A stretch of 64,000 nt of DNA from an uncultured Bacteroidota bacterium (GCA_903887005.1 CAISOH010000208.1:5252-69251); one strand, 5' to 3'; numbered from the stretch's first letter, positions 24,191-40,418 are shown. The notes: generated by a model from the sequence alone, not told the origin. Made by a program: numbers and translations.

Positions 24191-24216
24191 TCTTTTATTT
24201 TTCGTGAACAGATTGA

Positions 24217-24230
24217 CTGATGAACATCAA
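24217..24230. promoter_or_regulatory. FNR/CRP-box-like site CTGAT-GAAC-ATCAA upstream of marR copy 3
   Basis: It holds the same position relative to the TGAC-N4-GTCA palindrome as the site upstream of copy 1, about 23 bp upstream of it. Confidence 0.4.
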
Positions 24231-24239
24231 TATCATCGC

Positions 24240-24251
24240 TGACAAAGGTCA
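24240..24251. promoter_or_regulatory. TGAC-N4-GTCA palindrome upstream of marR copy 3
   Basis: TGACAAAGGTCA lies 58 bp before the ATG at 24309, the same spacing as for copy 1. Confidence 0.4.
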
Positions 24252-24308
24252 GTGCCTAGTACTACAGCATATTGCACATTTGTATCGTCAATAATAGTGA
24301 TAACAACA

Positions 24309-24937: not shown

Positions 24938-25714
24938 TTGTTTACAATTAACAGTAAAAATTTGAAAACCATCAATTGTAAATCCTGCTTATGTGCAGAT
25001 TGTTTTGTAAAGTTGTGTTCTCCGGAATGGGTTCAGCAAATTGATCTTCTGAAATACCAGACTCTTTATAAGAAAAATCAAAACATCATCAATGAAGGTT
25101 TCCGGATTTTTGGTATTTTCTTTATTTTAAAAGGAAAAGTGAAAGTTTTTTCTACCGGATTAAACGGAAGGGAGCAAATCGTACGTTTTGCCAGTGACGG
25201 ACATATCCTTGGACACAGAAGTATTGGAAATGAAGTATATCCGGTTAGCGCCACAGCTATGGAAGACTCTCTCATCTGCTTTATCGAAAATGATACGCTG
25301 AATGAAATGTTTGTTGCCAATCCCGAATTTGTAATAGCACTGATGATGTATTATTCCCGTGAACTGCGCAAGTTAGAAAACAGGGTTAAGAACATTGTGC
25401 AGATGAACATAAGGGAGAAAACTGCAGAGACATTATTATTGATGCTTGAAAACTTCGGTATAAACAGAAGTAATGAATTGAACCTGTCTTTCTCCCGCGA
25501 AGACTTTGCCAGCTTTGCAGGCAGCACCCGGCAGCAGGTAGCCATGCAACTTACCGAATTTGAAAAAGACGGTTTTATTGAAAAACGCGGAAAAAAAATA
25601 GCCATGAATAATATTGAAGGATTACAAAAAATCATTGGTGCATTCAACCTGCAAATACCCTCCAATACATATCATCAGCAGCCTGAAAAGCAGCTTAACC
25701 TTAAGAACAACTAA
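24938..25714 (+). CDS. Crp/Fnr-family transcriptional regulator with N-terminal cysteine cluster (FNR-like)
   Basis: cNMP-binding-like beta-roll (FFILKGKVKVF...GREQIVRF) and a C-terminal HTH (SREDFASFAGSTRQQVAMQLTEFEKDGFI). The N-terminus has CKSCLCADCFVKLC (5 Cys), and a further Cys lies in LICFIEN. TTG start, no in-frame ATG nearby. Confidence 0.85.
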   Translation: MFTINSKNLKTINCKSCLCADCFVKLCSPEWVQQIDLLKYQTLYKKNQNIINEGFRIFGIFFILKGKVKVFSTGLNGREQIVRFASDGHILGHRSIGNEVYPVSATAMEDSLICFIENDTLNEMFVANPEFVIALMMYYSRELRKLENRVKNIVQMNIREKTAETLLLMLENFGINRSNELNLSFSREDFASFAGSTRQQVAMQLTEFEKDGFIEKRGKKIAMNNIEGLQKIIGAFNLQIPSNTYHQQPEKQLNLKNN

Positions 25715-26192
25715 TCACTTTATAACCTTAAAAAGCTCCCCTGAAGCTCTTCTTGCTGAGTACCCACCTTTAAGCCAAAGGGAAAAATATGAATGACTGA
25801 ATTCCCCGCGGAATCTGACACGCTTTTAGTAAATTATTTATAAACACTCATTGTAAGGGTGAAATAATCTATTTATCCTTAAGACCCCTCCGGTAACCTG
25901 GATAAGTAAAATGAACTGCAAACAAATGCAACTCATACTTCTTAGCGGCCTGGGCTTAAATGGCCCTTTTAAATTCATTTTCCCCTCTTCTATACTGGTT
26001 TTTGCAGGAAATGTCCGAAATAATTTGTAAAAAGTGTCCGAAAAAAGACAAATTAATATAAGCTAAGTCATGAAATGTTTTTTTTATACCCGATACATTT
26101 ACACCAACAATTGTTATAACAACTGTTGTTGTATTTAAATGTTGTTATACAATTCAAAATAAAGTATAAAAATATTTATGATATAAAAGCAA

Positions 26193-26309: not shown

Positions 26310-27299
26310 ATGGCAGACCAAAATAACAAAAACGAAGACGGCTCCACCCTACCCGCTAGTAATTCAGGCAGGCGTAATTTCCTCAAGTTCGGTGCTTTGG
26401 CAGCAGGGCTTACTGTGGTGGGTGGCGGACTAACGAAAGTATTTTCCGGTGAAAAAGGTCAGAAAGTAAAATTGCTCTCCCCTGACGGCAAAGTGTACGA
26501 GGCGAATTCCGATCATCTGAAAGAGTTTCGTCCACCACCGGTTAGCAACGAAGAAGCGCGCAAAGGAATTCCGAACAAAAAATTCGTTATGGTAATTGAC
26601 CTGGCCAAATGCGACGGATGCAAGAAATGCACTGAAGCATGCCAGGCAATGCACTATACGGAATCTGACCGGGAATGGATCAAAGTATTCAAAATGCAGG
26701 AAGCAAATGCAGAAGCTCCTTTTTATTTTCCCAAACCCTGTTTCCATTGCGATAACCCTACCTGCACCAAAGTTTGTCCGGTGAATGCTACCTTCAAAAG
26801 GGAGGATGGAATAGTGCTGATAGATAATGAACGCTGCATAGGTTGCCGCATGTGCATGGCTGCCTGCCCTTATTCTACCCGTTTTTTCAACTGGAGCCAT
26901 CCAAGTTCAGCCCAGACCGCTGCACTTGGCAATATAAAGTATTCACCTGAACAGAGTGTTCCCCGCAGAATGGGTACTGTAGAAAAATGTGATTTCTGTC
27001 CGGATATGCTCCGTCAAGGTAAGATGCCTGCCTGCGTTAGCGGATGCCCGATGAACGTCATTTATTTTGGCGACCAGAATGAAGATGCAGTCACCAATGC
27101 AGCAGGAGTAACAGTTAAGTTAAGCAAATTACTTGCAGACAATGCCGGGTATAGGCACCTGGAAGAATTGGGAACCGAGCCGCGTGTATATTATCTGCCA
27201 CCCAAAAACAGAAAATATCCTGTTCCCGAAATGGAAAATATCGGAACAGATAAGAAGGTAAAAAAACACAATACAGACATGGGCAATATGGGAATGTAA
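26310..27299 (+). CDS. Tat-exported 4Fe-4S ferredoxin-type subunit (NrfC/PsrB/ActB2-like)
   Basis: Twin-arginine signal SGRRNFLKFGALAAG. Four Cys clusters: CDGCKKCTEAC, CFHCDNPTCTKVCP, CIGCRMCMAACP and CDFCPD...CVSGCP. Confidence 0.88.
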   Translation: MADQNNKNEDGSTLPASNSGRRNFLKFGALAAGLTVVGGGLTKVFSGEKGQKVKLLSPDGKVYEANSDHLKEFRPPPVSNEEARKGIPNKKFVMVIDLAKCDGCKKCTEACQAMHYTESDREWIKVFKMQEANAEAPFYFPKPCFHCDNPTCTKVCPVNATFKREDGIVLIDNERCIGCRMCMAACPYSTRFFNWSHPSSAQTAALGNIKYSPEQSVPRRMGTVEKCDFCPDMLRQGKMPACVSGCPMNVIYFGDQNEDAVTNAAGVTVKLSKLLADNAGYRHLEELGTEPRVYYLPPKNRKYPVPEMENIGTDKKVKKHNTDMGNMGM

Positions 27300-27347
27300 C
27301 ACTGTTATTAAACAAATAATTAATAATTAACAAAAAACTTTTCAATT

Positions 27348-28808
27348 TTGGCAAACGAAAAATATAATCTGAAAAACGAGATAGAAACCCTCCGCGAAGA
27401 TTGCCTTCGCCCTACAAGGACTTTTGGGCGCTCTACTCAAATATGGGTAGGTTGTTTACTTGTTATCATTGGATGGGGGCTTTATTGCTACATTCATCAA
27501 CTCAGGGACGGGTTGGGGGTAACAGCCATGCGAAACTATGTTTCCTGGGGGTTATACATTTCCACCTTTGTATTCTTTATAGGCATCAGCCACTCCGGCA
27601 CGCTTGTATCAGCCATCCTCCGTATTACCAAACAGGAATGGAGACGGCCTATAACACGTTCAGCAGAGCTGCTCACATTCGTATCCCTGTGCTTCGGCGG
27701 AATTCAACCCATCATTGATTTGGGACGCCCGGACAGGATCATGAACCTTGTCTTTTTCGGAAGGATACAATCACCACTCATATGGGATATTATCTCCATC
27801 ATGACCTACTTTACAGGCAGTACGGTATTCCTTTTCCTCCCTATGATACCTGATATGGCGCTTTGCCGGGACAGGTTAACCGTTGTCGATACCCGGTATA
27901 AGAAATTTAAAAAATGGTTGTACAAATTCCTGGCTATCGGATGGCAAGGCACTAAATCACAATGGCACCGTTTGGAATTGACCATGACCATTATGACTAT
28001 CGTGATTATTCCGGTGGCAGTATCCGTGCACACAGTGGTAAGTTACATTTTCGCCATGACATTGCGCCCGGGTTGGGACAGTACCGTATTCGGCCCCTAC
28101 TTTGTGGTTGGCGCGCTTTACTCAGGTTCTGCCTGTGTAATATTAGGAATGGCAGCATTCCGGAAACTGTACCACCTGGAAAAATATATCACTCCCCGGC
28201 ATTTTGATTTGATTGGACGTGTAGTATTGGCGCTGACAATGATTTATGCTTACATGAATCTGAATGAATACTGGATACCTGCTTATAAAATGGCAACCGC
28301 TGAAGGACATTTGCTGAACGACCTGTTTACCGGCAGTTACTCCACAGCATTCTGGACATGCCAGTTCGGTACCGTATTGTTGCCTATTGTTATTATGGCG
28401 TTCCCTAAAGGGCGAAAAATAACACCGCTTGTTATTACCTGCATTATTATAGCGGCGGGTGCATGGGTAAAAAGATACCTCATAGTGGTGCCAACACTAT
28501 TACATCCCTTTATGCCCATACAGGAAGTTCCGGGTACATGGTCCACTTACTTTCCTAACTATGTAGAGTTCTCTGTTACTGCAGCATGCCTGGCTGGAAT
28601 ATTTCTAATCATTACCCTCTTTTCAAAACTCTTCCCCATGATGGCTGTTTGGGAAGTAGAAGAAGGAATAGAAATAGATCACGATAAGCAAATGGCAATA
28701 GAACTCAGGGAGATAAGGTTAGCAGAGGAAGCGAAATTACTTGACCTGGCCAAAACAAATGGAGGAGTTGTAAATGAAGGTAACAAATCAATCACACAAC
28801 CAGCATAA
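27348..28808 (+). CDS. NrfD/PsrC/ActC-like polytopic quinol-interacting membrane subunit
   Basis: 486 aa with about 10 or more TM segments. SWGLYISTFVFFIGISHSGTLVSAILR...WRRPITRSAE matches my memory of the NrfD/ActC family consensus. It lies directly downstream of the NrfC-like gene. TTG start. Confidence 0.8.
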   Translation: MANEKYNLKNEIETLREDCLRPTRTFGRSTQIWVGCLLVIIGWGLYCYIHQLRDGLGVTAMRNYVSWGLYISTFVFFIGISHSGTLVSAILRITKQEWRRPITRSAELLTFVSLCFGGIQPIIDLGRPDRIMNLVFFGRIQSPLIWDIISIMTYFTGSTVFLFLPMIPDMALCRDRLTVVDTRYKKFKKWLYKFLAIGWQGTKSQWHRLELTMTIMTIVIIPVAVSVHTVVSYIFAMTLRPGWDSTVFGPYFVVGALYSGSACVILGMAAFRKLYHLEKYITPRHFDLIGRVVLALTMIYAYMNLNEYWIPAYKMATAEGHLLNDLFTGSYSTAFWTCQFGTVLLPIVIMAFPKGRKITPLVITCIIIAAGAWVKRYLIVVPTLLHPFMPIQEVPGTWSTYFPNYVEFSVTAACLAGIFLIITLFSKLFPMMAVWEVEEGIEIDHDKQMAIELREIRLAEEAKLLDLAKTNGGVVNEGNKSITQPA

Positions 28809-28823
28809 TAAATCAAATATATT

Positions 28824-29705
28824 ATGAAGATGAACAACATAATCAAAAAAACAGCGCTTGCAATAACCTTAACCGGATTGTTTTCCATAACTGCATCCGC
28901 ACAGGACCAGGGTAAGAGTGAAGCCACTATTGTAATGTCGTACAGCAAAAATGCAGACCTGAGCAAAACTGCAACCGCAATCATAAAAGTGAAAAATAAA
29001 GATGGAAAGTTTGTGGCGGCAAAAAATGCAAAGGTTAATTTCTATCTGATGCACGACAAGCAGGAGCAACTGCTGAAAAGCGCCAATACAGATAATACCG
29101 GCCTGGCAGTTATTGTGCTTCAGAAGGATATGCCATTAGATGACAGCCTCTCTTTCACCATCGTGGCAAAGGTTGAAAATGATCCTTTGTATGAAAATGC
29201 TTCCGAACAGATGCATTACAAAGACGCCAACCTAAGCATAAAACTAAATCCTGCCGATACCGGACGGGTAGTTATCGCTAAAGTAACGCAAACAGGTAAA
29301 GACGGAAAAGAAATAGCTATAAAGGGTACTGAAGTGAAATTTTATGTAAAGCGCTTGTTTGGCAATATGCCTGCTGCCGAAGAATATGCCGTAAGCACGG
29401 AGGATAATGGGGAAGCTTCTTTTATTATTCCAAAAAACATACCCGGGGATTTAGAAGGTAAAGTCACAGTTGTTGCGAAAATTGAAGACAATGATAAATT
29501 CGGGAATGTAGAAGGCAATGCAGATACAAAATGGGGCAAGCCGCTTGCGACAATAAAAGATCCTTTTCCACGTGAGTTATGGAGTCCTTATGCTCCGTTG
29601 CCATTAGTAATTACTATTTCAACACTCTTTGGTGGTGTGTGGTTCACTTATTTTTTCCTCTTCTACCAGTTAGTAAAAATAAAAAAAGACACAGCAAAAG
29701 CTTAA
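28824..29705 (+). CDS. hypothetical periplasmic protein with two beta-sandwich-like repeats and a C-terminal TM anchor
   Basis: Signal peptide. Internal repeat (KVKNKDGKFVAAKNAKVNFYL / TQTGKDGKEIAIKGTEVKFYV). C-terminal hydrophobic helix LPLVITISTLFGGVWFTYFFLFYQLV. Confidence 0.55.
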   Translation: MKMNNIIKKTALAITLTGLFSITASAQDQGKSEATIVMSYSKNADLSKTATAIIKVKNKDGKFVAAKNAKVNFYLMHDKQEQLLKSANTDNTGLAVIVLQKDMPLDDSLSFTIVAKVENDPLYENASEQMHYKDANLSIKLNPADTGRVVIAKVTQTGKDGKEIAIKGTEVKFYVKRLFGNMPAAEEYAVSTEDNGEASFIIPKNIPGDLEGKVTVVAKIEDNDKFGNVEGNADTKWGKPLATIKDPFPRELWSPYAPLPLVITISTLFGGVWFTYFFLFYQLVKIKKDTAKA

Positions 29706-29736
29706 TTCCTAACAATAAACATAAATAACAAACAAT

Positions 29737-30174
29737 ATGAAAAAAAACATAGCACAAGTAAAGAAAATAAAATATCCGGGGTTCCTGGTAACCGGAGCTA
29801 TAGCAGGCGCAATAACTCTTCTGTATGCCTTCGCTCCCATGCCGGGGAAAAACACTCCATGGATTGCTCCGGCTACAGCAGACGCCGTAAAAAATCCTAT
29901 TGCATCGGACGCTGCGTCTATTGAAGCCGGTAAAGCCGTTTATAAAAAAAGCTGCTACGACTGCCATGGCAAAAAAGGGAAAGGCGATGGTCCGAAAAGC
30001 GGGGAATTAGACCAAAACCCACAGGACTTCACCAAACCGGAATTCCAAAAACAAACAGATGGCGCACTCTTCTGGAAAATCTCAGAAGGCAGAAAGCCAA
30101 TGCCTTCTTTTAAAAGTGAAATTACTAAGGAGCAGCGCTGGCAGGCCATCAATTATATACGTACACTGAAATAG
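29737..30174 (+). CDS. membrane-anchored monohaem cytochrome c (ActE/CBB3-type class I)
   Basis: CYDCHGKKGKGDG haem-binding motif, distal PMPSF Met, N-terminal TM anchor. Paralogous to ORF 35522-35929 (shared QTDGALFWKI...PMPS...NYIRTL). Confidence 0.85.
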   Translation: MKKNIAQVKKIKYPGFLVTGAIAGAITLLYAFAPMPGKNTPWIAPATADAVKNPIASDAASIEAGKAVYKKSCYDCHGKKGKGDGPKSGELDQNPQDFTKPEFQKQTDGALFWKISEGRKPMPSFKSEITKEQRWQAINYIRTLK

Positions 30175-30248
30175 AACACATCAAAAAGGCAACACACTCA
30201 CAAAATAAATAAACAATTATAATCAATTAACAATTTAATCTCATAAAT

Positions 30249-31526
30249 ATGAAAAAGTTTACCAAACAAACAATTGCTGTCCTTGCCATATTAACAGTAA
30301 TATTTACTGCTGTTAAATGCACAAAACATAACCAGGTACTGGATTCTACTCCTGCAGCAGCCAATACTGATAGCTTAAGTTGTATTAAGGGAACTGCTAC
30401 CCTTCAGCCTATTGGTGGGTCTGCATGGGATGGTACTATTGAAGCCGTCTGGAACAATGTACCAAAACTGACAGTTCATGCCACAGTTCCTGATTTAGGA
30501 AATGGCACATTTGCCGGGTTTATTGGCAATTCTACAGACATTACTTTGCGTTCCATGTATGATGCAGCAAACATCTACTTTCTCGTGGAGTGGAATGCTG
30601 ACATGAAATGCCTGGCATCTTCACCATGGTACTATAACCCTACTACAATGCGTTGGGCCCAGGAAGCTTCTGCACCTGTTCAGAATTCGGGTGCTACCAC
30701 ATTCAGGCCTCCTTTTATCCAGGATCAATTTGTAATAATGTTTAACATTGCAAATTCCTGCCCTACTTTTAATTCTTTATCTTGCTATGCTGCATGCCAT
30801 GTAAATACAACTTTCGGTGATTCAACAATGACAGGAGGAGTAATGCACACAAACGGCCCTACTGAATTATTAGATGTATGGAGAGCCCGTATGCTCCAGG
30901 TTATGAATGTGAACCAGGCAAATGACTGCTATATAGATAATGGCGCCGGTGCTTTAAATGCGAATGAAGTTCATAATGATCTCCAGGTAAATAACGGACC
31001 TACTCCTGCAGCAGACGGCGGTTTCAGTAACAAACAAACCTTAAAAATTTCAGGGTTAGTAACTACAATTAAAGTATCGGTTCCCATGTTTGTAATACCA
31101 AGCGGAATATACAGCAATGGCGCTATCATGCAGAGCGATACACTCCCGGGCGGCAAAGCAGTAAAAGTAACCAAAGTTGATACTTTTGGAGTTCTTACGC
31201 TTGCCAATGGAGTAAAACTTGACCCCAGCACAGCAACATCAGGTACCGCATTTCAACAAGTGGGTACCGGCGACGGACCAAATTGTATTCCCGGCAGCAT
31301 AGTATCTAATTATACTGGAAGCCGTGGCGACGTAACCGCTAATGCTTATTGGACTGGAACAGGATGGAGATTATTATTGAAGCGCGCATTGAAAACAGCT
31401 GATGCTGTCAATGATGTTGATCTTTCCTCTTTGGCCACTCAGCCGTTCGGCGTAGGCGCAATGTTTAACGGAGCCGATAATGAACATGCCATTGTAGCAG
31501 GTCTGAAGTTGCACTTTAACAAATAA
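30249..31526 (+). CDS. secreted protein, possible DOMON / EB_dh / CBM9-fold (haem-b-binding-like) domain protein
   Basis: Signal peptide or lipobox (FTAVKC). The N-domain pattern TIEAVWNNVPKLTVHA...SMYDAANIYFLVEWNAD resembles ethylbenzene-dehydrogenase gamma / DOMON-type domains. This assignment is from memory only. Confidence 0.35.
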   Translation: MKKFTKQTIAVLAILTVIFTAVKCTKHNQVLDSTPAAANTDSLSCIKGTATLQPIGGSAWDGTIEAVWNNVPKLTVHATVPDLGNGTFAGFIGNSTDITLRSMYDAANIYFLVEWNADMKCLASSPWYYNPTTMRWAQEASAPVQNSGATTFRPPFIQDQFVIMFNIANSCPTFNSLSCYAACHVNTTFGDSTMTGGVMHTNGPTELLDVWRARMLQVMNVNQANDCYIDNGAGALNANEVHNDLQVNNGPTPAADGGFSNKQTLKISGLVTTIKVSVPMFVIPSGIYSNGAIMQSDTLPGGKAVKVTKVDTFGVLTLANGVKLDPSTATSGTAFQQVGTGDGPNCIPGSIVSNYTGSRGDVTANAYWTGTGWRLLLKRALKTADAVNDVDLSSLATQPFGVGAMFNGADNEHAIVAGLKLHFNK

Positions 31527-31548
31527 AAATTCACCATTAATTTTTTTC

Positions 31549-31950
31549 ATGATGAAAAAAATAGCAATAACAACGCTTGCACTTGGTGTACTGTCAGTTG
31601 CTCTAATCACAGGTTGTCAAAAAGACACCACGCTTTACATCAGGAATGAAGTGGCAGTTTCCGGGACCGTTTCTTTCAAAAAAGACCTGGTACCCATATT
31701 CACTGCTAACTGCGCTTTAAGCGGTTGCCATGCAAGTGGTGGTCATAAACCGGATTTATCGTCTGACAAAGCATATAATTCATTGAAAAGTGGAAAATTT
31801 GTTGACACAACGACAGCCGCCAGCAGCATCATATACGAGAGGTTAACAGGAAAACTTAGCCCTGCTATGCCTATGGGTAAAGCAACCAATCCATCCAATA
31901 TCAACTCGCTGATACTTGCATGGATAAAACAAGGGGCAAAGAACAATTAA
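31549..31950 (+). CDS. lipoprotein with Planctomycete-cytochrome-c-like (PSCyt1-like) segment carrying a CX4CH motif
   Basis: Lipobox LITGC. FTANCALSGCHASGGHKPDLSS...IIYERLTG...PAMPMG resembles PSCyt1-type domains, but with C-x4-CH instead of CxxCH. Confidence 0.45.
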   Translation: MMKKIAITTLALGVLSVALITGCQKDTTLYIRNEVAVSGTVSFKKDLVPIFTANCALSGCHASGGHKPDLSSDKAYNSLKSGKFVDTTTAASSIIYERLTGKLSPAMPMGKATNPSNINSLILAWIKQGAKNN

Positions 31951-31978
31951 TTGAATCATAAAATTAAATTAATTTAAT

Positions 31979-32914
31979 ATGAAAATACTAAAAAAAATAA
32001 AACAGTCTCATGGTATTTGTCTGTTGATAATTGCCTGCTGCTGTTTACCTTCTGCCAGTGGCTATGCCCAGGACGGCAATAGTGCAGATAACACTGCACC
32101 TGTAGAAAAGACCTACACAAGAAATACCTTTGCAGGCAATATGATTATTGACAATCAATCGGTAATGGTGCCATTGGAAAAAACCATTGAGTTTGCCATT
32201 CAGCACCGCTTTGGCATAATCAATAACGGGTATGCCGATTTTTATGGAATGTTCGCTCCGGCAAACATTCGCCTGGGAATGAACTATACACCAATTAAAA
32301 ACCTGCAATTAGGTATTGGCTTAACAAAAGGTAATATGCTTGTGGACGGTAACCTCAAATATGCCATTATCAAACAAGCGGAAAGCGGTGGTTCCCCGGT
32401 AAGCGTTACCTATTATGGAGATATGGCAATATCAACCATTCCCCAGGCAGGTAATTTCGTAAACAATGCCGACAGAATCTCTTATTTTAACCAGTTGATT
32501 ATAGCGAGGAAAGTTACCAAAGAATTCTCTGTGCAGGTATCGCCAAGTTTATCTTACTTTAATAATATAGTGGGATACGTGGCTCCCGATGGAAGCATTC
32601 AGCCGACAATGAAAAACGCAAATTTTTCCATTGCCTTCAGCGGCAGGTATAAGGTGACCGGGGCTATGAGCATAATGGTAAATTATGATCAGCCTCTTAC
32701 GCAAAATCTGACCAATAACCCGCTTCCAAATATCAGTCTTGGATTGGAGTTCAGTACAACCGGACATACTTTCCAGATATTTGCAACAGACTATCAAGGA
32801 ATCATTCCTCAATATAACAACGTCTTTAACCAGATTGACTGTTCAAAGGGACAATTCCTGATTGGGTTTAACATAACCAGGAGATGGTATCATGACTCAG
32901 ACAAAGAGAAATAA
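31979..32914 (+). CDS. putative outer-membrane beta-barrel protein
   Basis: Signal peptide. Alternating hydrophobic/polar strands with aromatic girdle residues throughout (e.g. FSIAFSGRYKV, SLGLEFST, FLIGFNITRRW). Confidence 0.45.
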   Translation: MKILKKIKQSHGICLLIIACCCLPSASGYAQDGNSADNTAPVEKTYTRNTFAGNMIIDNQSVMVPLEKTIEFAIQHRFGIINNGYADFYGMFAPANIRLGMNYTPIKNLQLGIGLTKGNMLVDGNLKYAIIKQAESGGSPVSVTYYGDMAISTIPQAGNFVNNADRISYFNQLIIARKVTKEFSVQVSPSLSYFNNIVGYVAPDGSIQPTMKNANFSIAFSGRYKVTGAMSIMVNYDQPLTQNLTNNPLPNISLGLEFSTTGHTFQIFATDYQGIIPQYNNVFNQIDCSKGQFLIGFNITRRWYHDSDKEK

Positions 32915-32939
32915 ATTTTTAGGTAAGTGAGTAATGATT

Positions 32940-32969
32940 GCGCGCGCAGAGAAGTTCTGCGCGCGCTTT
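32940..32969 (+). terminator. GC-rich rho-independent terminator ending the seven-gene operon
   Basis: gcgcgcgcaga-gaagt-tctgcgcgcgc (11-bp GC-rich stem) followed by ttt, 26 bp after the stop at 32914. It stands out in an AT-rich context. Confidence 0.65.
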
Positions 32970-33011
32970 AGGAATCCAATGTTTCGCTGCGGAATGTCAA
33001 TGGTTAGTACT

Positions 33012-33467
33012 ATGTCACTTGAGAAAGAAATACACCAGGTCCGGCCATTCAGGAATGAATACCATAAAGCAACTGTCAACATTATTTATACTGGCAAATG
33101 GATGTTGCAGCTTATCTTAGATGTGCTGAGGCCATATAAATTAACGCTCCAGCAATACAATATCCTTCGCATCTTACGGGGTAAATTTCCTGAAGCAATT
33201 ACAGTAACTTACTTTCGCGACAGATTGCTTGACAGGATGAGCGATGCCTCAAGAATAATTGAAGTCCTCAGAAAAAAAGGATTGGTAAAAAGAAATATCT
33301 GCGAAGAAAACAGGCGCAGGATGGATGTTTTAATAACTCAAAAAGGAATCCAGCTGCTTGATGAAATAGAAAAAGAAAATGAGCGGATGGATAAGTACTC
33401 TTCCTCATTAAATGACCAGGAAATAATTCAACTCAATTTCCTGCTCGATAAGCTAAGAAATCTTTAA
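33012..33467 (+). CDS. MarR-family transcriptional regulator, paralogue 4
   Basis: MSLEKEIHQVRPFRNEYHKA... is collinear with paralogues 1-3. The ATG at 33012 lies downstream of the terminator hairpin, so the 5' extension in the ORF track is rejected. Confidence 0.85.
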   Translation: MSLEKEIHQVRPFRNEYHKATVNIIYTGKWMLQLILDVLRPYKLTLQQYNILRILRGKFPEAITVTYFRDRLLDRMSDASRIIEVLRKKGLVKRNICEENRRRMDVLITQKGIQLLDEIEKENERMDKYSSSLNDQEIIQLNFLLDKLRNL

Positions 33468-33556
33468 TCTTTAATCTTTATTGCAAATTCCCACCTCAAT
33501 TTAATCTGCATATCTGTTTATGCAATAAATAAATATATCAATTTGGAGTAATACCC

Positions 33557-33608
33557 GATTGTTGCAAAAATAAAACTGATTAAAATCAGTTTTATTTTTG
33601 CAACAATC
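33557..33608. promoter_or_regulatory. perfect 52-bp palindrome (25-bp arms, 2-nt centre) with a CTGAT-TAAA-ATCAG core
   Basis: gattgttgcaaaaataaaactgatt-aa-aatcagttttatttttgcaacaatc. All 25 arm positions were verified as complementary. It lies between marR copy 4 and the porin operon. Confidence 0.8.
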
Positions 33609-33653
33609 ATTACTTTTACACTAACAACTGATGTTATAACATAATTCGGTATG

Positions 33654-33691
33654 ACATCAATGGAAATAACATCAATTGGCTAAACATCAAT
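33654..33691. promoter_or_regulatory. three direct repeats of ACATCAAT spaced exactly 15 bp apart
   Basis: ACATCAAT occurs at 33654, 33669 and 33684, about 200 bp upstream of the porin gene start. Confidence 0.5.
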
Positions 33692-33889
33692 TAAACAGAC
33701 ATAATCATAAATAAATAGCATTATTCTGTTTTTCTATGGCATGAAATTTTTGATTTCGATTTAAATGAAAATTTGAGTTGCAAATAATTTAAATTTAAAA
33801 CAAATATGAACATTTTCTTGTCCGGATAATATTGCAATACAGGATTCAATCAACTACACACAATTTTCATTAACATAAAAACAAAGCGT

Positions 33890-35092
33890 ATGAAACCAAA
33901 TAAATTAATTACAAAAGTTTTATTGTTTGCTGTATTCGCTTTTTTAAAGGCGAATACTTCAATTGCACAGGGAACCGACAATACAGATGTATCCAAACAA
34001 GTATCCGCACTGAAACCAGGAGAGAGTAATTTCATGATGGTAGGCCTGGTAACGTTTGGTTTTGTAAATCAAAACATCACCACCACCGGACTATCTCCCA
34101 ACAAAACAAATAGCATAGGAGACGCAGACCGTTATGAATTCAGCCCGATGTTCCTTTGGCGCCATGGCGATAAACTGCTTGCCGAATTTGAACCATCATG
34201 GGATGGCAATGCAATAGGCGTAAACTGGGCTGATGTGTCCTATTATGTTGCTCCCGGTTTTATAGTAAGAGGGGGGTATTTGGTTTTGCCTTTCGGAACC
34301 TATTCAAAGCGTTTGGCCGCCGGATGGATCAATAAATTACCTTCTGATCCTTATGGTATGGATATGCCCGGAAGTGATTTTGGAGTAGAAGTGGAAGGTG
34401 GATTCCCATTAGGAAGTATGAAATGGAGCTATGATATTGCGGTTTCAAACGGGTTTCAGTTGAACCCGAACGGACAAATTGCAGGCGTTGGGATTAATGC
34501 GATAAATAATGGCAAAACAGTAACAGGCAGGTTAGCTTTATTACCGCTTTCCAATTCAAGCCTGGAAATTGGTGTTTCAGGCTTAATGGGTAGCCTTGCT
34601 ACACCTACAGGCGATTCCAATATTTATAATAACCCAATGGCCTCTATGTACGCAGTTGACTTCAATTTTATAAAAAATATTAATCCGGTACAGATTAATA
34701 TTAAAGGGCAATATAATATTTCAAATATAAATAAACAGACTTATTCAAGTCCTGATTCTTCACTTCCAAAATATTCCTTTGAAAATAATGCAAGTTCCTA
34801 CTTTGCACAACTGTCATTAAGGCCTTCAAAATCAAAAAATAAGATCCTTAGAAATTTTGAGTTGGCCGGACGTTATGTAAACTATACCACTCCCAAGCAG
34901 TCTTTATGGGGACAAAATTATTCCGAAATGGACATATGCCTGGATTACTGGCTAAGCTGGAGAACCGTAATTAAGTTAGGGTATGAAAGTACTAAGTCAG
35001 ACGGGACTACATCCCAGTCCGTTTCAACAGGATTAGATGGCACTTCTACAACTGTAAACAGAATGATTATCCAATTTTCCACCGAATTTTAA
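33890..35092 (+). CDS. outer-membrane porin-like beta-barrel protein
   Basis: Signal peptide, beta-strand periodicity, and a C-terminal ...IQFSTEF ending in Phe as in OMP sorting signals. 400 aa, similar in size to phosphate-selective porin O/P-like proteins. Confidence 0.6.
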   Translation: MKPNKLITKVLLFAVFAFLKANTSIAQGTDNTDVSKQVSALKPGESNFMMVGLVTFGFVNQNITTTGLSPNKTNSIGDADRYEFSPMFLWRHGDKLLAEFEPSWDGNAIGVNWADVSYYVAPGFIVRGGYLVLPFGTYSKRLAAGWINKLPSDPYGMDMPGSDFGVEVEGGFPLGSMKWSYDIAVSNGFQLNPNGQIAGVGINAINNGKTVTGRLALLPLSNSSLEIGVSGLMGSLATPTGDSNIYNNPMASMYAVDFNFIKNINPVQINIKGQYNISNINKQTYSSPDSSLPKYSFENNASSYFAQLSLRPSKSKNKILRNFELAGRYVNYTTPKQSLWGQNYSEMDICLDYWLSWRTVIKLGYESTKSDGTTSQSVSTGLDGTSTTVNRMIIQFSTEF

Positions 35093-35104
35093 AAAACAAC
35101 TTTT

Positions 35105-35389
35105 ATGAAAATAACGAGTATTCAAAAAATAGCAACAATAATAATAATTTGCTCTGGAATTTTTGGCCTGATTACTGTAAATGGCTGCGTGGAAAGCAAA
35201 CAGGTAGCTGCAAAAAGCGGTGCGCAACTGTGGGGAGAAAATTGCTCAAGATGCCATAATATGCCTGCTCCTGCTACTTTTTCACAGGAACAATGGAAAA
35301 CCGTAGGTATGCATATGCAAAGCCGTGCGCTGCTTACTAATAAGGAAAAGGATAAAATTGTAGAATTTCTGCAGCAATCAAGTAATTAA
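35105..35389 (+). CDS. small monohaem cytochrome c (lipoprotein-like)
   Basis: CSRCH haem motif. Hydrophobic N-terminus ending in VNGC. 94 aa. Confidence 0.65.
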   Translation: MKITSIQKIATIIIICSGIFGLITVNGCVESKQVAAKSGAQLWGENCSRCHNMPAPATFSQEQWKTVGMHMQSRALLTNKEKDKIVEFLQQSSN

Positions 35390-35423
35390 TATACAATATC
35401 CCGATTCTAATTTCAATATAGTG

Positions 35424-35497
35424 GCTGTCTCAAAAGTAAATGAAATAATACAGTTAGTTTTAATTAAAGCTATTATAATTTCAACTTTTGAGACAGC
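35424..35497 (+). other. long-range inverted repeat within the operon (14-bp perfect arms, 46-nt spacer)
   Basis: gctgtctcaaaagt (35424-35437) pairs with acttttgagacagc (35484-35497), between two cytochrome c genes. Confidence 0.6.
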
Positions 35498-35521
35498 ATG
35501 CTAAATTTAAAATAATTAAAA

Positions 35522-35929
35522 ATGAAAAAAATAACAAATGGCGCCTCACTGCTGATTTTAGCCAATGTAATATGCTTTTCAACTTTTGCTCAGCAAAAAG
35601 TATTTACCGCTCCGGCTTCAGCTGATGGTATGCAAAATCCATTTAAAGACAATGCAGCAGCAACTGCAAATGGCAAAACAACCTATACCACCTTTTGTGT
35701 GCCATGCCATGGCGATAAAGGTAAAGGCGATGGCGTTGCAGCCGCTGGATTACAAAAACAACCTGCTGATCATACTTCAGCTAAAATTCAGGCGCAAACT
35801 GATGGCGCTTTGTTTTGGAAGATATTTACCGGCAACAATCCTATGCCCAGTTATAAGATGCTATCTCAAACCCAGATATGGGAATTAGTGAATTATATAC
35901 GCACCTTATCTAAAGCTAAGAAAAAGTAG
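35522..35929 (+). CDS. periplasmic monohaem cytochrome c (class I, CBB3/ActE-type)
   Basis: Signal peptide. CVPCHGDKGKGDG. Distal PMPSY Met. Paralogue of 29737-30174. Confidence 0.85.
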   Translation: MKKITNGASLLILANVICFSTFAQQKVFTAPASADGMQNPFKDNAAATANGKTTYTTFCVPCHGDKGKGDGVAAAGLQKQPADHTSAKIQAQTDGALFWKIFTGNNPMPSYKMLSQTQIWELVNYIRTLSKAKKK

Positions 35930-36051
35930 CAAAATTAATTAAAATAGCACCTATTTGATTTGGCGAAAACAGGTGTACTATTTCCATATTGCGTCTTTCT
36001 GGTTTAGGTTTATAATAACGGTATATTAGAGTATTATTAAATACTGCGTCT

Positions 36052-37326
36052 ATGAAATATGGCAAACAATTCTGGATTACAGTTGCCCTGTTTAATCTAT
36101 GTATTGTAGCAGCTTTGGGCGTTTTGTTGAGAACCAAAATGGTCTTCCCCCTGGAATCAATTGAATTCAGCAATATTCTGGAAGCGCATTATCATTTCGC
36201 AATGAATGGATGGATAACATCCACCTTAATGGTTTTGATGGTATATGAACTACTGCCGGAGTTAATTAATAGAAAACCTGTTTATCAATGGATGCGTTGG
36301 GGGATGTTGCTCAGTAGTTATGGTTTGGCATTGAGCTTCATTATTGATGGTTATACAACAGTTACAATGATAATTATTACTTTTTACATTGTCCTGGTAT
36401 TTTTATTTTCATGGATATTCATCAAGGACTTAATTAAAGCAAAGCCGGTTAAGCCGGTATTAATACTCTGTACTTGCGCACTGGTATCTTTGGTGTTGTC
36501 TTGTATAGGCCCGGAAACTTTTCTGGGTTTTGTGCTTGCCGCCCATTCCATGAATATACTTTTATTCCGCGATACTGCTTATACTTATTTGCACTTTCAA
36601 TACAACGGTTTTTTTCCGCTGGCTATTTTTGCGTTATTTTTCAATTACATTGGCAGTAAGGATATTTCATTGAAAGCACAGAAGTATATGCATAAAATAG
36701 CCATCATGCTGCCTGTAATTATTCTACCCACTCTTTTTTTATCCTATCTCTGGCATTACCCCAATGTGTACGTACGTTCAATTGCAGCTTTGGGATGCAT
36801 TTGCATGTTTGTGTTTATGTTCCTCTTCTACAGATTACTAAGTTCTGTATGGGCGCATTTAAAACTAATGGACCGGTATTCAAAGTTTTTAGGCGTCTTA
36901 TCTATTATTTCGTTGACTGTAAAAGTCATTTTACAAACCGGGACTTTGATACCATATGTTGGTATTATTGTTTTCGGTAACAGGCCAATTATCATAGGAT
37001 ATATTCATTTGGTAATGCTTGGCTTTATTACCTTATTTCTTCTGTCTTATTTTTTGCAAAATGCCTTTCTAAATAGCAATACGACAGTTACCAAAACCGC
37101 CATTCTTATTTTTGCATCAGGAGTAGTGATTAATGAATTATTATTGATGCTGCAGGGCCTCAGCCAGATTCTTATGAAGTTTTATCCAATTTACGGATGG
37201 CTGCTTTGGGGAGCAGTGATATGGTTGTTAACAGGAGCGGTCGCAATCCTGGCTTCAAGGCTAAAATACAGGAAGCTTGTTTCCGTCAATATCCTTGAAA
37301 ACAGGCACAAAATTATGACCCGTTGA
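36052..37326 (+). CDS. 12-TM integral membrane protein with three His-containing intramembrane motifs (possibly NnrS-like, unassigned)
   Basis: 424 aa and almost entirely hydrophobic. Recurring motifs HYHFAMNGW, YLHFQYNGFF and YIHLVMLGF lie in separate helices. No HCO-type HH motif. Confidence 0.6.
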   Translation: MKYGKQFWITVALFNLCIVAALGVLLRTKMVFPLESIEFSNILEAHYHFAMNGWITSTLMVLMVYELLPELINRKPVYQWMRWGMLLSSYGLALSFIIDGYTTVTMIIITFYIVLVFLFSWIFIKDLIKAKPVKPVLILCTCALVSLVLSCIGPETFLGFVLAAHSMNILLFRDTAYTYLHFQYNGFFPLAIFALFFNYIGSKDISLKAQKYMHKIAIMLPVIILPTLFLSYLWHYPNVYVRSIAALGCICMFVFMFLFYRLLSSVWAHLKLMDRYSKFLGVLSIISLTVKVILQTGTLIPYVGIIVFGNRPIIIGYIHLVMLGFITLFLLSYFLQNAFLNSNTTVTKTAILIFASGVVINELLLMLQGLSQILMKFYPIYGWLLWGAVIWLLTGAVAILASRLKYRKLVSVNILENRHKIMTR

Positions 37327-37461
37327 TTTTTAAAATATTATTATTGAAATTGAAAAAATTGTATAAATTTATGATGCATGTAAAACCATCCAAATCTTAA
37401 TTCGAAGTTTCGTTTGATCACAAGTTCAATTATTTTATAAAAAAGTTAAACAAAAAATGTT

Positions 37462-37935
37462 ATGAAAAAAACTTATTTATTTGCATTAATGATTTCAGCA
37501 AGCCTGGTCATTTTTAGCTGTGGTAACTCCCAACAAAATAATGAAGATAGCAAAAATGCAGCGGCTACTTCTGCTCCCAAACCTGCCGAAGGCGGAGACC
37601 AGGGTGTGGGAAGTTATAAGAATGTGGAATTGACGCACCCGGTTGATCAAAGTATGGCAGAAAAAGGAAAAGAAATTTATGGCGTGAAATGCATTGCCTG
37701 CCATAAAATTACAGCCGAGAAGATGATAGGCCCCGGATGGAAGGGCGTTACAGAGAGAAGGAGGCCCGAGTATATACTGAATTTTGTAACCAATACAGAC
37801 GAAATGCTTGACAAAGATCCTAATGCCAAAGCCTTACTTTCTGTATGCATGGTAAGAATGCCTAACCAGCACCTTACGGATATTGAAGCCCGTTCGGTAC
37901 TTGAATTCATGCGTAAAAACGATGGAAAAAATTAA
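37462..37935 (+). CDS. cytochrome c lipoprotein (c551/c552-like)
   Basis: Lipobox LVIFSC. CIACHKITAEKMIGPGWKGV and distal VRMPNQ. It resembles the small cytochromes encoded in Bacteroidota denitrification loci. Confidence 0.8.
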   Translation: MKKTYLFALMISASLVIFSCGNSQQNNEDSKNAAATSAPKPAEGGDQGVGSYKNVELTHPVDQSMAEKGKEIYGVKCIACHKITAEKMIGPGWKGVTERRRPEYILNFVTNTDEMLDKDPNAKALLSVCMVRMPNQHLTDIEARSVLEFMRKNDGKN

Positions 37936-37955
37936 AAAGATAAATTTTTAAAAAA

Positions 37956-37989
37956 GGCATTTCTGTTAAATCAGGAATGCCTTTTTTTT
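37956..37989 (+). terminator. rho-independent terminator ending the second cytochrome operon
   Basis: ggcatttctg-ttaaat-caggaatgcc followed by tttttttt. Confidence 0.8.
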
Positions 37990-38147
37990 GTTTTGAAGAG
38001 CTATTGGAATTCTTCCGCAGCTACCTTCTCTATACATGTTGAAACAACTGAATCCCTGTTTTTTTATAAAAAAAAGTTTCTCTGAAAAACACAGAGAGAA
38101 AGACGTCTCCCATAAACACCTCCCAAATTGTTAGTATAATTGAGACC

Positions 38148-40418
38148 TTAACCCTTCACCTGCGCTTCCACAACCGACAATGCTATGATATTTACAATCT
38201 GCCGGACAGTACTTCCCAATTGCAGTACATAAACCGGTTTGCGAAGCCCGAGCAATATAGGGCCAACAGCTTCAGCTCCACCTACTTCCTGTAACAGGTG
38301 ATAGGCAATATTGCCTGCAGCCAGGTTGGGGAATATCAATACATTGGGTGATTCATTTACCAGGTCGGAGAATGGATAGTTTTCCTTTAACAGGTCTTTA
38401 TTAAAAGCAATACCAGCCTGCACTTCACCGTCAATTATCATATCCGGGCGCATTTCTTTTATCCGTGCGACCACATTACTAACCAGCATAGCCTCCTGCG
38501 ACTGGCTGCTGCCGAAATTGGAATAAGAAAGCATAGCTATACGCGGCTTTATATTGTAGTTGCCCACCACATTAGCCGTCAGTAGTGTAATATCTATCAG
38601 TTCATCTTCCGTAGGGTTGAAATTAAGCGTGGTGTCGGCAAAGAAAAGAGGCCCTTTTTTGGTAAGCATTATATACATGCCCGCCACTCTTTTTGCTCCA
38701 TCTTCCATCCCGATTATTTCAAGTGCCGGGCGGATGGTGTCAGGATATTTACGGGTTAAGCCCGAGATCATAGCATCAGCCTCCCCGCCATCAACCATCA
38801 TACAACCATAGTAAACCCGTTCCCGCATTGTCTTCTTTGCTTCATAAAGATTGTACCCCCTGCGTTTACGTTTCTCAAAAAACTTTTCGCCATATTCACA
38901 ACGCTTCTTTTCAGCAGTATCATCTTTAGGATCTATTATTTCCACATCTTCAAGGTGCAGGTTATTTTCCAAAATCATCAGGCGTATTTTCTCTTCATTA
39001 CCAAGCAATATCGGTATGGCTATGCCCTCATCCTTAGCTATCTGGGCGGCTTTCAGGATCTTAATGTTCTCTGCCTCTGCAAATACAACGCGTTTGGGGT
39101 TTTGTTTCGCTTTATTGATTATAAACTTCAACAGGTTATCGTCAGTGCCTAAGCGGTGGTATAACGCCGCTTCATAGGCATCCCAGTCTGTAATAGGTTT
39201 TTTGGCAACTCCGCTGTCCATTGCCGCCCTGGCTACTGCGGTAGATACCTTTACTAACAGGCGCGGATCCATTGGTTTTGGGATAATGTAGGTAGGCCCA
39301 AACTGAAGGCTGATATCATTATAAGCCACGTTCACAATATCCGGCACGGGTTCTTTCGCAAGCGCTGCCAAAGCCTTTACTGCGGCAAGCTTCATTTCTT
39401 CATTGATGCTGCCGGCACGTACATCGAGCGCTCCCCTGAATATATACGGGAAGCCCAGCACATTATTGACCTGGTTTGGATAGTCGCTGCGGCCTGTAGC
39501 CATAATCACATCAGGGCGGGCCGCCATAGCTTCGTCATAGGTTATCTCCGGATCAGGATTCGCCAAGGCGAATACTATTGGCTTCTTAGCCATACCCTTC
39601 ACCATATCCTGCGATACTACATTCCCTTTCGAAAGGCCTATAAATACATCAGCGTCTTTCATTGCTTCATGCAGGTCCACCGGTTTCATATCCTGTGCAA
39701 ACTGTAATTTATAACTTTCAAGTTCTGTCCTGCTCTTTACGATCAGCCCTTTCCTGTCGAACATGTACATGTTCTTAACATTTGCGCCAAGAGCAAGGTA
39801 TATCTTGCAGCAGGAAATAGCCGAAGCACCTGCCCCGCTGATCACAATCTTCACATCTCCTATCTTCTTGCCTACAACGTCTAATGCGTTTAGCAGCGCT
39901 GCACCTGATATTATGGCTGTGCCATGCTGGTCGTCATGCATGATGGGAATGCTGAGTTCTTCTTTCAGCCTTCGCTCAATTTCAAAACATTCGGGGGCTT
40001 TAATATCCTCTAAATTTATGCCGCCGAAAGTAGGTTCCAGGGCCTTCACCACTTTCACAAAATCCTCTATTTCCCTTACATTCAGCTCTATATCAAAAAC
40101 ATCAATGTCCGCATATATTTTAAACAGCAGTCCCTTCCCCTCCATCACCGGTTTTGAGGCTTCCGGGCCTATATCGCCCAATCCCAGCACAGCCGTACCA
40201 TTGGTGATAACAGCTACTAAATTACCTTTTGCAGTGTAGCGATATACATCTTCCGGGTTAGCATGTATTTCCATACAGGGTACCGCTACTCCCGGAGAAT
40301 AGGCAAGTGCGAGGTCGCGCTGCGTCTTTGTTTCCTTGGTAGGAATTACTTCTATTTTTCCCGGCCTTCCCTTCTCATGATATTCAAGTGCATCTTCTTT
40401 TCTTATCAATTGTGCCAT
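38148..40418 (-). CDS. maeB: NADP-dependent malic enzyme (malic enzyme domain fused to a PTA-like domain)
   Basis: About 756 aa. N-terminus ALEYHEKGRPGKIEV..TKP..TQRDLALAYSPGVA, Rossmann motif ISGAGASA, and a long C-terminal phosphate-acetyltransferase-like domain. The ATG at 40418 is preferred over the TTG at 40451. Confidence 0.92.
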   Translation of the reverse strand: MAQLIRKEDALEYHEKGRPGKIEVIPTKETKTQRDLALAYSPGVAVPCMEIHANPEDVYRYTAKGNLVAVITNGTAVLGLGDIGPEASKPVMEGKGLLFKIYADIDVFDIELNVREIEDFVKVVKALEPTFGGINLEDIKAPECFEIERRLKEELSIPIMHDDQHGTAIISGAALLNALDVVGKKIGDVKIVISGAGASAISCCKIYLALGANVKNMYMFDRKGLIVKSRTELESYKLQFAQDMKPVDLHEAMKDADVFIGLSKGNVVSQDMVKGMAKKPIVFALANPDPEITYDEAMAARPDVIMATGRSDYPNQVNNVLGFPYIFRGALDVRAGSINEEMKLAAVKALAALAKEPVPDIVNVAYNDISLQFGPTYIIPKPMDPRLLVKVSTAVARAAMDSGVAKKPITDWDAYEAALYHRLGTDDNLLKFIINKAKQNPKRVVFAEAENIKILKAAQIAKDEGIAIPILLGNEEKIRLMILENNLHLEDVEIIDPKDDTAEKKRCEYGEKFFEKRKRRGYNLYEAKKTMRERVYYGCMMVDGGEADAMISGLTRKYPDTIRPALEIIGMEDGAKRVAGMYIMLTKKGPLFFADTTLNFNPTEDELIDITLLTANVVGNYNIKPRIAMLSYSNFGSSQSQEAMLVSNVVARIKEMRPDMIIDGEVQAGIAFNKDLLKENYPFSDLVNESPNVLIFPNLAAGNIAYHLLQEVGGAEAVGPILLGLRKPVYVLQLGSTVRQIVNIIALSVVEAQVKG

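Follow-up and report, generated by a model that had tools for sequence, protein, structure and literature searches.

The DNA considered here is a stretch of 64 kb from an uncultured Bacteroidota bacterium (GCA_903887005.1, CAISOH010000208.1:5252-69251; the window, with coordinates counted from its first letter), which at 33890-37935 carries genes for a probable outer-membrane beta-barrel, three monohaem cytochromes c and a 424-aa protein with 12 transmembrane (TM) segments. Of most interest is the 424-aa protein, which is a member of a large unnamed Bacteroidota family. Its predicted fold is that of subunit I of the haem-copper oxidases (HCOs), and the family is embedded in neighbourhoods of NsrR-like, ScdA, NirK, Nor and Nos genes, yet neither Pfam and NCBIfam nor the source databases give it a functional name. 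The interpretation favoured here, which is given an even chance of being right, is that of an NnrS-like haem protein of HCO fold, fed by cytochrome c, that handles nitric oxide (NO) by binding, scavenging or slow reduction. With an oxidase or NO reductase (NOR) fold and a different set of conserved residues, the family is a candidate, open to experiment, for tolerating or turning over NO. Much of clade-II nosZ is carried by Bacteroidota of soil and fresh water (Chitinophagales, Sphingobacteriales), which are counted as N2O sinks although their handling of NO is poorly annotated.

Predicted fold and conserved residues

A word-indexed search with the 424-aa protein gave 868 homologue matches, an exhaustive profile search 1,862 clusters at 50% identity with E<=1e-3 (891 with E<=1e-30), and a pattern scan of species-representative genomes at least 504 confirmed family matches. 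The best 80 loci are all in Bacteroidota where a taxon is given, mainly Chitinophagaceae, Flavipsychrobacter, Chitinophaga, Mucilaginibacter, Flavisolibacter, Taibaiella and Niastella; the closest listed relatives (72-82% identity) are from uncultured Bacteroidetes metagenome-assembled genomes (MAGs) and metagenome contigs. Source names are 'hypothetical protein' throughout, the exception being one automatic UniRef label, 'Cytochrome oxidase subunit I profile domain-containing', and no description of the family was found in the literature searched.

How is such a protein to be placed? Direct assignment by hidden Markov model (HMM) was tried and dropped. The matches to NnrS, COX1, cytochrome b or NosR-like families that a preliminary description of this DNA had proposed to look for did not materialize: no Pfam or NCBIfam family could be assigned to the 424-aa protein or to 36 homologues, none of which matched COX1 (PF00115) at E<=10, the family has no PDB match by sequence or profile search, and nothing like cytochrome b or NosR was seen in Pfam, in NCBIfam or among the top fold matches. 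The only repeated weak Pfam matches among the 36 homologues were to DUF6219 (3 members) and DUF2871 (2 members, E 0.016).

The predicted structure is more informative. An AlphaFold2 model built with a 36-sequence alignment (pLDDT 93.3, pTM 0.92) has 12 long helices that carry conserved histidine motifs, and the initial label of a 12-TM His-motif protein can thus be kept. In a Foldseek comparison with the PDB, the best 50 matches are all HCO subunit I, with TM-scores of 0.61-0.77. Structures of NorB from the cytochrome-c-dependent NOR (cNOR) come first (4xyd_A, E 1e-7, TM-score 0.73; 3o0r_B, TM-score 0.75), followed by CcoN of the cbb3 oxidases and then by aa3, bo3 and the quinol-dependent NOR (qNOR). 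The best matches to NorB and CcoN (TM-scores 0.73-0.77) have alignments of about 455-490 columns, so that all 12 helices superpose in order. A relationship to a transporter or another non-redox family had been named as evidence to the contrary of a redox role; the protein is not a transporter, and its structural relatives are solely HCO subunit I proteins, which are redox enzymes.

At the sequence level the relationship is faint. Aligned by hhalign to a broad NorB profile (proteobacterial NorB plus 20 NorB-like proteins from related loci), the family gives a full-length, collinear match (residues 2-413 against NorB 6-439, 389 columns) that is weak (E 8.6e-4, probability 24%). Six reversed or block-shuffled controls gave short matches with E 0.005-0.2, all worse than 8.6e-4. 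Because of the fold match, and because the full-length NorB alignment is better than its controls, the family is considered to belong, at a distance, to the HCO structural superfamily, for which the evidence from the modelled fold is strong and that from sequence weak.

Conservation was measured over 142 members with 25-71% identity to the window protein. H46, H181, H319, W54, R27 and G186 are present in all of them, and Y184, N185, K291, E362, Q295 and R311 in 96-98% (97% for K291 and E362). H48 is kept in 93%, with Asn, Arg, Tyr or Val in 10 of the 142. The only alignment columns with more than 30% histidine are 44, 46, 48, 181 and 319. All HCOs arose from triplication of a 4-TM unit, and a trace of internal 4-TM repeats is seen in the family: TM1-4 align with TM5-8 (E 2.4e-5), and H48, H181 and H319 occupy equivalent repeat positions on TM2, TM6 and TM10, H46 being extra. 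This detectable repeat bears on the origin of the superfamily.

What has become of the HCO active site? In the NorB alignment, H181 corresponds to the FeB-ligating histidine of TM6 and H319 to the second histidine of the TM10 H-x-H motif, a ligand of the low-spin haem. N185 aligns with the FeB glutamate, Y317 with the first TM10 histidine, which is the proximal ligand of the catalytic haem, and F229/L230 with the His-His pair of TM7. The six canonical HCO histidine ligands (TM2; TM6; TM7 His-His; TM10 H-x-H) are thus not kept as a set in the family, whose invariant histidines are on TM2, TM6 and TM10 only. A low-spin haem site may be kept, with a TM2 histidine and H319 as ligands; the canonical binuclear centre is not. 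From helix positions in the model, the polar set Y184, N185, K291, Q295, R311 and E362 would lie around the active-site pore. As canonical active-site ligands are absent, the 424-aa protein is no more than a putative catalytic component.

A 'rotated HCO' was also considered. In hhalign comparisons the TM1-2 sequence AHYHFAMNGW paired with AAHGHLAFFG of NorB TM9-10 (E 0.0025-0.0047), as if the cofactors were displaced by one 4-TM repeat. The match grew no longer when the alignment was circularly permuted, block-shuffled controls gave similar values (E 0.005-0.04), and Foldseek aligns the 12 helices in direct order. The idea was dropped to speculation; the likeness most likely reflects the H-x4-G motif shared within the internal triplication.

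Genomic neighbourhoods of the family

Genomic context constitutes the strongest functional evidence for the family. Neighbourhoods were counted in the best 80 of at least 504 matches, taken as species-level loci with neighbours clustered de novo. The comparison with denitrification loci that had been proposed at the outset shows a strong link to denitrification and NO-stress loci; homologues in Taibaiella, Mucilaginibacter and Chitinophaga adjoin clade-II nosZ-nosLDFY, ScdA/hemerythrin, Rrf2 and DUF2249/DUF1858 genes. Immediately 5' of the family gene and on the same strand is an Rrf2 gene in 25 of the 80 loci and a NirK-like gene in 10. Immediately 3' is a ScdA/hemerythrin gene in 23 loci and, in convergent orientation, a gene for a cytochrome of the 157-aa type in 29. 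This cytochrome is the commonest neighbour of the 12-TM family, found within 10 kb in 61-63 loci and as an immediate neighbour in 34. The same distance takes in ScdA (39-40 loci), Rrf2 (33-34), NosZ (33), hemerythrin (27), a pair of NorC-like and NorB-like genes (20), the barrel (16) and the 94-aa cytochrome (16-19).

The NorB-like HCO (Pfam COX1, 3e-22; NorB by hhalign, 1e-19) is encoded two to four genes from the family gene. As a separate NorB-like HCO stands beside the family in these 20 loci, an accessory, NnrS-like role is favoured. The NorB-like protein (about 450 aa, e.g. L070:5797-7185, and also in L062 and L042) is preceded by its NorC-like cytochrome and also departs from the canonical pattern: a conserved Glu stands in place of the TM6 FeB histidine, and H-A-M replaces H-x-H on TM10, so that His and Met would be the ligands of the low-spin haem. 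It might be one of the cNOR-related families mentioned by Murali et al. 2024 (PMC11214002). Four loci (L035, L039, L046 and L077) carry a 567-aa COX1-family HCO, then SCO1/SenC, cytochrome c and HemN-like radical-SAM genes, and this set lies directly 5' of the barrel, small-cytochrome and family genes.

A palindrome, AAGAYA-N4-TRTCTT, is found within 300 nt 5' of the family gene in 12 loci, and ahead of genes for hemerythrin (9), Rrf2 (3) and cytochromes (4) as well. It is likely to be the operator of an Rrf2 (NsrR-like) regulator in Chitinophagales, and it differs from the known NsrR box of Proteobacteria and Bacillus.

Subfamilies track context. The window clade and one other occur with cytochromes and the barrel, and the remaining clades with Rrf2, ScdA, NirK and Nos; even a distant member (P0320) keeps a context of nos, Crp, Rrf2 and ScdA. 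The porin/cytochrome-context and NO-stress-context subfamilies have the same core residues, and both types of context are present in one MAG (L009 and L011). In locus L007 the two are joined: NrfD, Big_1, cytochrome c, EB_dh, small lipoprotein, DUF5777, barrel and small-cytochrome genes are followed by those for a kinase, Rrf2, the family protein and ScdA. This single row ties both operons of the window, the present one and that upstream of it, to an NO context.

Three other neighbours can be mentioned. In loci of the Rrf2/ScdA type, a conserved protein of about 417 aa without a Pfam family is encoded between DUF1858/DUF2249 and FeS_assembly_P genes (17-18 loci, e.g. L003:13077-14330), as is, in 13 loci (e.g. 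L004:11640-13448), another conserved protein, of about 602 aa, that likewise has no Pfam family; for the latter no fixed position applies. In Taibaiella soli a truncated (bacterial-like) globin gene (L001:8073-8468) lies just 5' of the ScdA, hemerythrin and family genes.

Proposed role and alternatives

In the mechanism favoured, the 135-aa and 157-aa monohaem cytochromes c (periplasmic/lipoprotein) would pass electrons to a b-type haem, predicted to be held near the outer membrane face by H46/H48 of TM2 and H319 of TM10. A second, polar site, made up of H181, Y184 and N185 of TM6 plus K291, Q295, R311 and E362, would be located where true oxidases and NORs house the binuclear centre. NO may be bound at this site and scavenged or slowly reduced, and the cell would thereby be protected during nitrite/NO exposure or low-oxygen growth. 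The barrel and the 94-aa cytochrome would constitute a separable outer-membrane module, and are treated as such because both occur together in the related loci carrying them. An upstream menaquinol-oxidizing NrfC/NrfD-like module could feed the cytochromes, and both operons probably answer to an Fnr-like and/or MarR-type regulator.

Why NnrS-like? NnrS is a haem/copper protein of proteobacterial membranes that responds to NO. The reference was the nnrS of S. meliloti, which adjoins nirK on pSymA, together with a 25-sequence NnrS alignment. NnrS and the family are both of about 400 aa with 12 TM segments, and their models match the same NorB/CcoN structures; the AlphaFold2 model of S. meliloti NnrS (pLDDT 82) matches the cbb3 and NorB structures with TM-scores of 0.54-0.67. 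They also have in common H-x-H-x4-G-[FW] on TM2 and H-x4-G on TM10 (WHAHEMLFGF and MHVLTVGA in NnrS, AHYHFAMNGW and YIHLVMLGF in the family). Both occur beside nirK or nor genes and under NO-responsive regulators, although the window itself is without these neighbours, and both accompany a true NOR rather than replace it. There are differences, however. The NnrS invariants H172, H262, H284 and H334 (S. meliloti numbering) have no counterparts in the family, the TM6 motif H181-x-Q-Y-N-G, invariant in the family, is not a feature of NnrS, and NnrS is from Proteobacteria whereas the family is from Bacteroidota, a different phylum. Homology by profile was tried and rejected: against S. meliloti NnrS and the 25-sequence alignment hhalign gave E 0.1-0.75, and the family has no match to PF05940, with which the S. 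meliloti NnrS control scores 1.9e-113. NnrS against the HCO profile was likewise negative (E 0.11). The family is thus NnrS-like in architecture, context and co-occurrence with NOR, and profile comparison does not place it within NnrS.

Several observations weigh against the favoured role. The 424-aa protein has no Pfam or NCBIfam match, and no sequence-level link connects its family to NnrS. As judged from the alignments, canonical ligands of a haem/non-haem binuclear centre are absent, so that the active site offers no argument for NO chemistry. Searches of the 64 kb by tblastn with NosZ, NirK, NorB-like, sNOR-like, ScdA, Rrf2 and hemerythrin sequences found nothing else, so the early remark that no canonical N-oxide reductase is present was correct, and Rrf2, ScdA, NirK, Nor and Nos were among the genes not found. 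The Rrf2-type operator AAGAYA-N4-TRTCTT was not found near the window genes. Finally, the window clade is always accompanied by cytochromes and the barrel, and its role could therefore differ from that of the NO-stress paralogues. Of the original interpretation in terms of N-oxides and redox chemistry, the parts that draw on fold and synteny have gained support; HMM matches and a canonical active site have not been forthcoming.

Could the protein be a genuine respiratory NOR, i.e. a minimal cytochrome-c-dependent enzyme with a non-canonical site, whose N2O is then consumed by clade-II NosZ? This is considered unlikely. The family shares with cNOR NorB and cbb3 CcoN the 12-TM fold, histidines on TM2, TM6 and TM10 and adjoining monohaem cytochrome c genes, and with cNOR NorB a denitrification neighbourhood. 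NorB is the best structural match, cytochrome c genes lie directly 5' and 3' as in norCB, nirK adjoins the gene in 10 loci and nos clusters are present in 33. Murali et al. 2024 (PMC11214002) have also argued that NO can be reduced at HCO active sites of several kinds. Unlike NorB and CcoN, however, the family has its H-x-H on TM2 and not on TM10, and Asn at the position of the FeB Glu. It is shorter than most HCOs, with its internal 4-TM repeat similarity still detectable, and the neighbouring cytochromes are not homologues of NorC. Of the three FeB/CuB histidines H181 alone is retained, N185 stands where the Glu ligand would be and the catalytic haem would be without a proximal His. The loci that encode a separate NorB-like HCO, and the four that encode a longer COX1-family HCO with SCO1/SenC, indicate that the family is usually additional to a NOR, and the tight coupling to Rrf2 and ScdA resembles that of stress defence rather than respiration.

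The recently proposed eNOR, sNOR, gNOR and nNOR offer a second comparison. They too have a divergent HCO fold for which a role with NO was proposed from a modified active site and genomic context. Their active-site histidines are kept (gNOR replaces one) and they have CuA-type partner subunits (PMC11214002), whereas the 424-aa family is without most of the histidines and without a cupredoxin partner, no cupredoxin gene having been found to accompany the 424-aa gene. That paper (Murali et al. 2024; PMC11214002) does not cover the family, nor does it mention NnrS or Chitinophaga-type taxa.

A role purely in electron transfer is similarly doubtful. The 424-aa protein would in this case be a dihaem b-type module that passes electrons from the menaquinol pool or another complex to the c551-like cytochrome, which would serve NirK or NosZ. 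The four conserved histidines, level with one another on three inner helices, could serve as ligands of two bis-His haems, ligands of an open site are not conserved, and the commonest immediate neighbour is a cytochrome of the 157-aa type whose paralogues precede nosZ. Clade-II nos clusters in Bacteroidota are not known to include NosR or NosGH. However, H48 fits poorly as an obligatory axial ligand, being replaced in 10 of 142 members, the invariant polar cluster Y184, N185, K291, Q295, R311 and E362 suggests a reactive or binding pocket, and an NrfC/NrfD-type quinol module is already encoded upstream in the window. The association with Rrf2, ScdA and hemerythrin would also be left without explanation.

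A further reading, also improbable, is that of an unrecognized enzyme that converts NO: a minimal, cytochrome-c-fed member of the oxidase superfamily in which H181, Y184, N185, K291, Q295 and E362 would replace the His3 metal site and in which a trace of the ancestral 4-TM triplication would be retained. If true, it would supply the step of NO handling that is 'missing' from many Bacteroidota with clade-II nosZ. It would also be a present-day relative of the symmetric protein from which respiratory oxidases descend, with NnrS possibly its proteobacterial counterpart. The family and NnrS add a new data point on the diversification of the HCO scaffold.

It is quite improbable that the window clade is unrelated to nitrogen oxides and takes part in another cytochrome-c-linked process with the barrel and the upstream EB_dh, DUF5777 and NrfCD genes, e.g. 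exchange of electrons with some other substrate at the outer membrane. This clade and one further clade do sit with cytochromes and barrel and not with Rrf2/ScdA, neither NO-linked genes nor the Rrf2-type operator were found in the window, and the barrel and small lipoprotein cytochrome pair resembles porin-cytochrome modules. Yet the core residues are the same in both types of context, the bridging locus L007 joins both gene sets in one row, and four loci of the barrel type also carry the COX1-family HCO, SenC and HemN-like radical-SAM genes. Handling of metal or haem, e.g. by a Cu or Fe channel or chaperone that matures or repairs NirK, NosZ or NOR-type enzymes, is very improbable. In its favour, three invariant histidines that match one another in a threefold repeat would form the lining of a central path; among the neighbours, NirK and NosZ are Cu enzymes, ScdA repairs iron centres and SCO1/SenC is present in some loci; and NnrS reportedly contains copper (Bartnikas et al. 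2002). The protein, however, is folded like a subunit of redox enzymes and not like any known transporter (transporters had TM-scores <0.3 in the NnrS control search) and the window, by tblastn, has no Cu enzyme yet has three cytochromes.

The window genes, their leader and the upstream operon

The features of the window region are listed below.

Genes and sequence elements of the 424-aa protein locus (aa, amino acids; ORF, open reading frame)
Feature	Position	Strand	Basis or remark
MarR-family regulator just 5' of the barrel leader	32934-33467	+	one of four paralogues in the window
Perfect 52-bp palindrome (25+2+25)	33557-33608	.	arms 100% complementary; RNA folding -31.9 kcal/mol, z -13
12-mer ACTGATTAAAAT at palindrome centre	33575-33586	+	exactly three copies in the window
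400-aa secreted protein, probable outer-membrane beta-barrel	33890-35092	+	ORF call, signal peptide, C-terminal F/L
94-aa monohaem cytochrome c lipoprotein	35105-35389	+	lipobox VNGC, CSRCH, conserved MHM
Long hairpin without T-run, between the barrel/cytochrome pair and the next three genes	35424-35497	+	-31.6 kcal/mol, z -7
135-aa secreted monohaem cytochrome c	35522-35929	+	CVPCH, Pfam Cytochrom_C
424-aa 12-TM protein, HCO subunit-I-like fold	36052-37326	+	AlphaFold2 model, Foldseek, conserved residues
157-aa monohaem cytochrome c lipoprotein	37462-37935	+	lipobox IFSC, long linker, CIACH, c551/c552-like type
Intrinsic-terminator-like hairpin, then T-run	37950-37987	+	RNA folding -20.6 kcal/mol, z -5

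The five genes had been described as one operon. All five ORFs were recovered exactly where the preliminary description had placed them, on the same strand and adjoining, with intergenic gaps of 12, 132, 122 and 135 bp. They are not conserved as one transcription unit, however: in related loci the same gene families recur with varying orders and strands. A single operon is plausible. The strong terminator that was said to end it is present as a hairpin with a T-run, although shifted by a few nucleotides from the 37956-37989 first given. The hairpin at 35424-35497 may be a processing or attenuation site. A search of 32900-38200 against Rfam gave generic hairpin matches below threshold and nothing else.

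Is the first gene that of a porin? The 400-aa protein has a signal peptide and a terminal F/L residue, kept in 18 homologues (its own C-terminus is ...QFSTEF), and one of 14 homologues matches Porin_O_P at E 5e-4. The window protein itself has no match in Pfam or PDB. An outer-membrane beta-barrel is probable from these sequence features, and the label 'porin', for which no family could be assigned, is less secure.

The three small proteins each contain exactly one CxxCH, as first described, and with a secretion signal and a distal Met they have the features of class I monohaem cytochromes c. Pfam Cytochrom_C matches the 135-aa and 157-aa proteins above cut-off (8.7e-12 and 7.4e-8) and the 94-aa protein just under it (5.6e-5); CxRCH and MHM of the latter are kept in 17 homologues. 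The 135-aa protein has 50% identity to a paralogous cytochrome at 29737-30174 in the upstream operon, and the haem-binding DNA at 35705-35733 is 90% identical to 29962-29990 of that 145-aa gene, so that the same cytochrome is encoded once in each operon. By BLAST the 135-aa cytochrome falls in a 'cyt150' cluster (21 of 80 loci) and not in the NorC-like cluster beside NorB-like genes, and the monohaem cytochromes c encoded on either side of the 424-aa gene cluster apart from the NorC-like cytochrome that precedes NorB-like genes. The resemblance of the 157-aa cytochrome to c551/c552-type donors holds up: it matches the NCBIfam cytochrome c551 (below cut-off), and its family is encoded directly 5' of clade-II nosZ in many loci.

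The regulatory region of about 420 bp described ahead of the barrel gene is a 422-bp gap (33468-33889) that does contain the 52-bp palindrome. At its centre the palindrome reads CTGAT-TAAA-ATCAG, which is similar to an FNR/CRP box. Both arms contain a TAnnTTTG box of the Bacteroidota -7-like kind, and the only plus-strand TAnnTTTG boxes outside coding sequence are those in the palindrome arm; with 64 copies against 78 expected, the window shows no enrichment of this motif, whose presence in the arms is thus weak evidence. All copies of ACTGATTAAAAT are in regulatory gaps, at 24848 before an Fnr-like gene, at 26192 before the FeS/NrfD operon and at 33575. With up to one mismatch there are six matches against 1.06 expected, and none of 100 shuffles reached six. 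Other k-mers common to both operon leaders are modestly above chance, and ACTGATTAAAAT alone stands out. Because ACTGATTAAAAT is shared and the palindrome core resembles an FNR box, the sequences suggest a common, oxygen-linked control of both operons.

Regulators are plentiful nearby. Four MarR-family paralogues, 74-81% identical in DNA, are found in the window, three in tandem at 22996-24764 and the fourth, 73% identical to the one at 23735-24190, 5' of the barrel leader. FNR-like boxes lie in two gaps after MarR genes (CTGATGAACATCAA at 24217 and CTGATTAAAATCAA at 24849). The Crp/Fnr-family regulator at 24938-25714 (+) has an N-terminal Cys cluster, C-x2-C-x-C-x2-C-x4-C, as in oxygen-sensing FNR, and matches NCBIfam Fnr at 3.3e-22, below cut-off. 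Palindromic elements around TGTTATAACA and AACAACTG are present in both leaders (26100-26133 and 33622-33651) and may be MarR operators.

The upstream operon (26310-32914, +) has seven genes. The first two encode a TAT-signal 4Fe-4S protein (DsrO/NrfC-like, NCBIfam 1.3e-54) and an NrfD/DsrP-like membrane protein. These are followed by genes for a 293-aa Big_1 protein with a C-terminal anchor, a cytochrome c, a 425-aa EB_dh-domain lipoprotein, a 133-aa CALSGCH lipoprotein and a DUF5777 barrel. The same gene row recurs in L007, where the barrel and small-cytochrome genes come directly after it. With an EB_dh-domain haem lipoprotein and an NrfCD-like module encoded here, the 424-aa protein is not the sole catalytic candidate that it was first taken to be. 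Farther upstream, a single ORF of 2,730 aa at 5214-13406 (+) has a G+C content of 0.44-0.48, higher than that of its surroundings.

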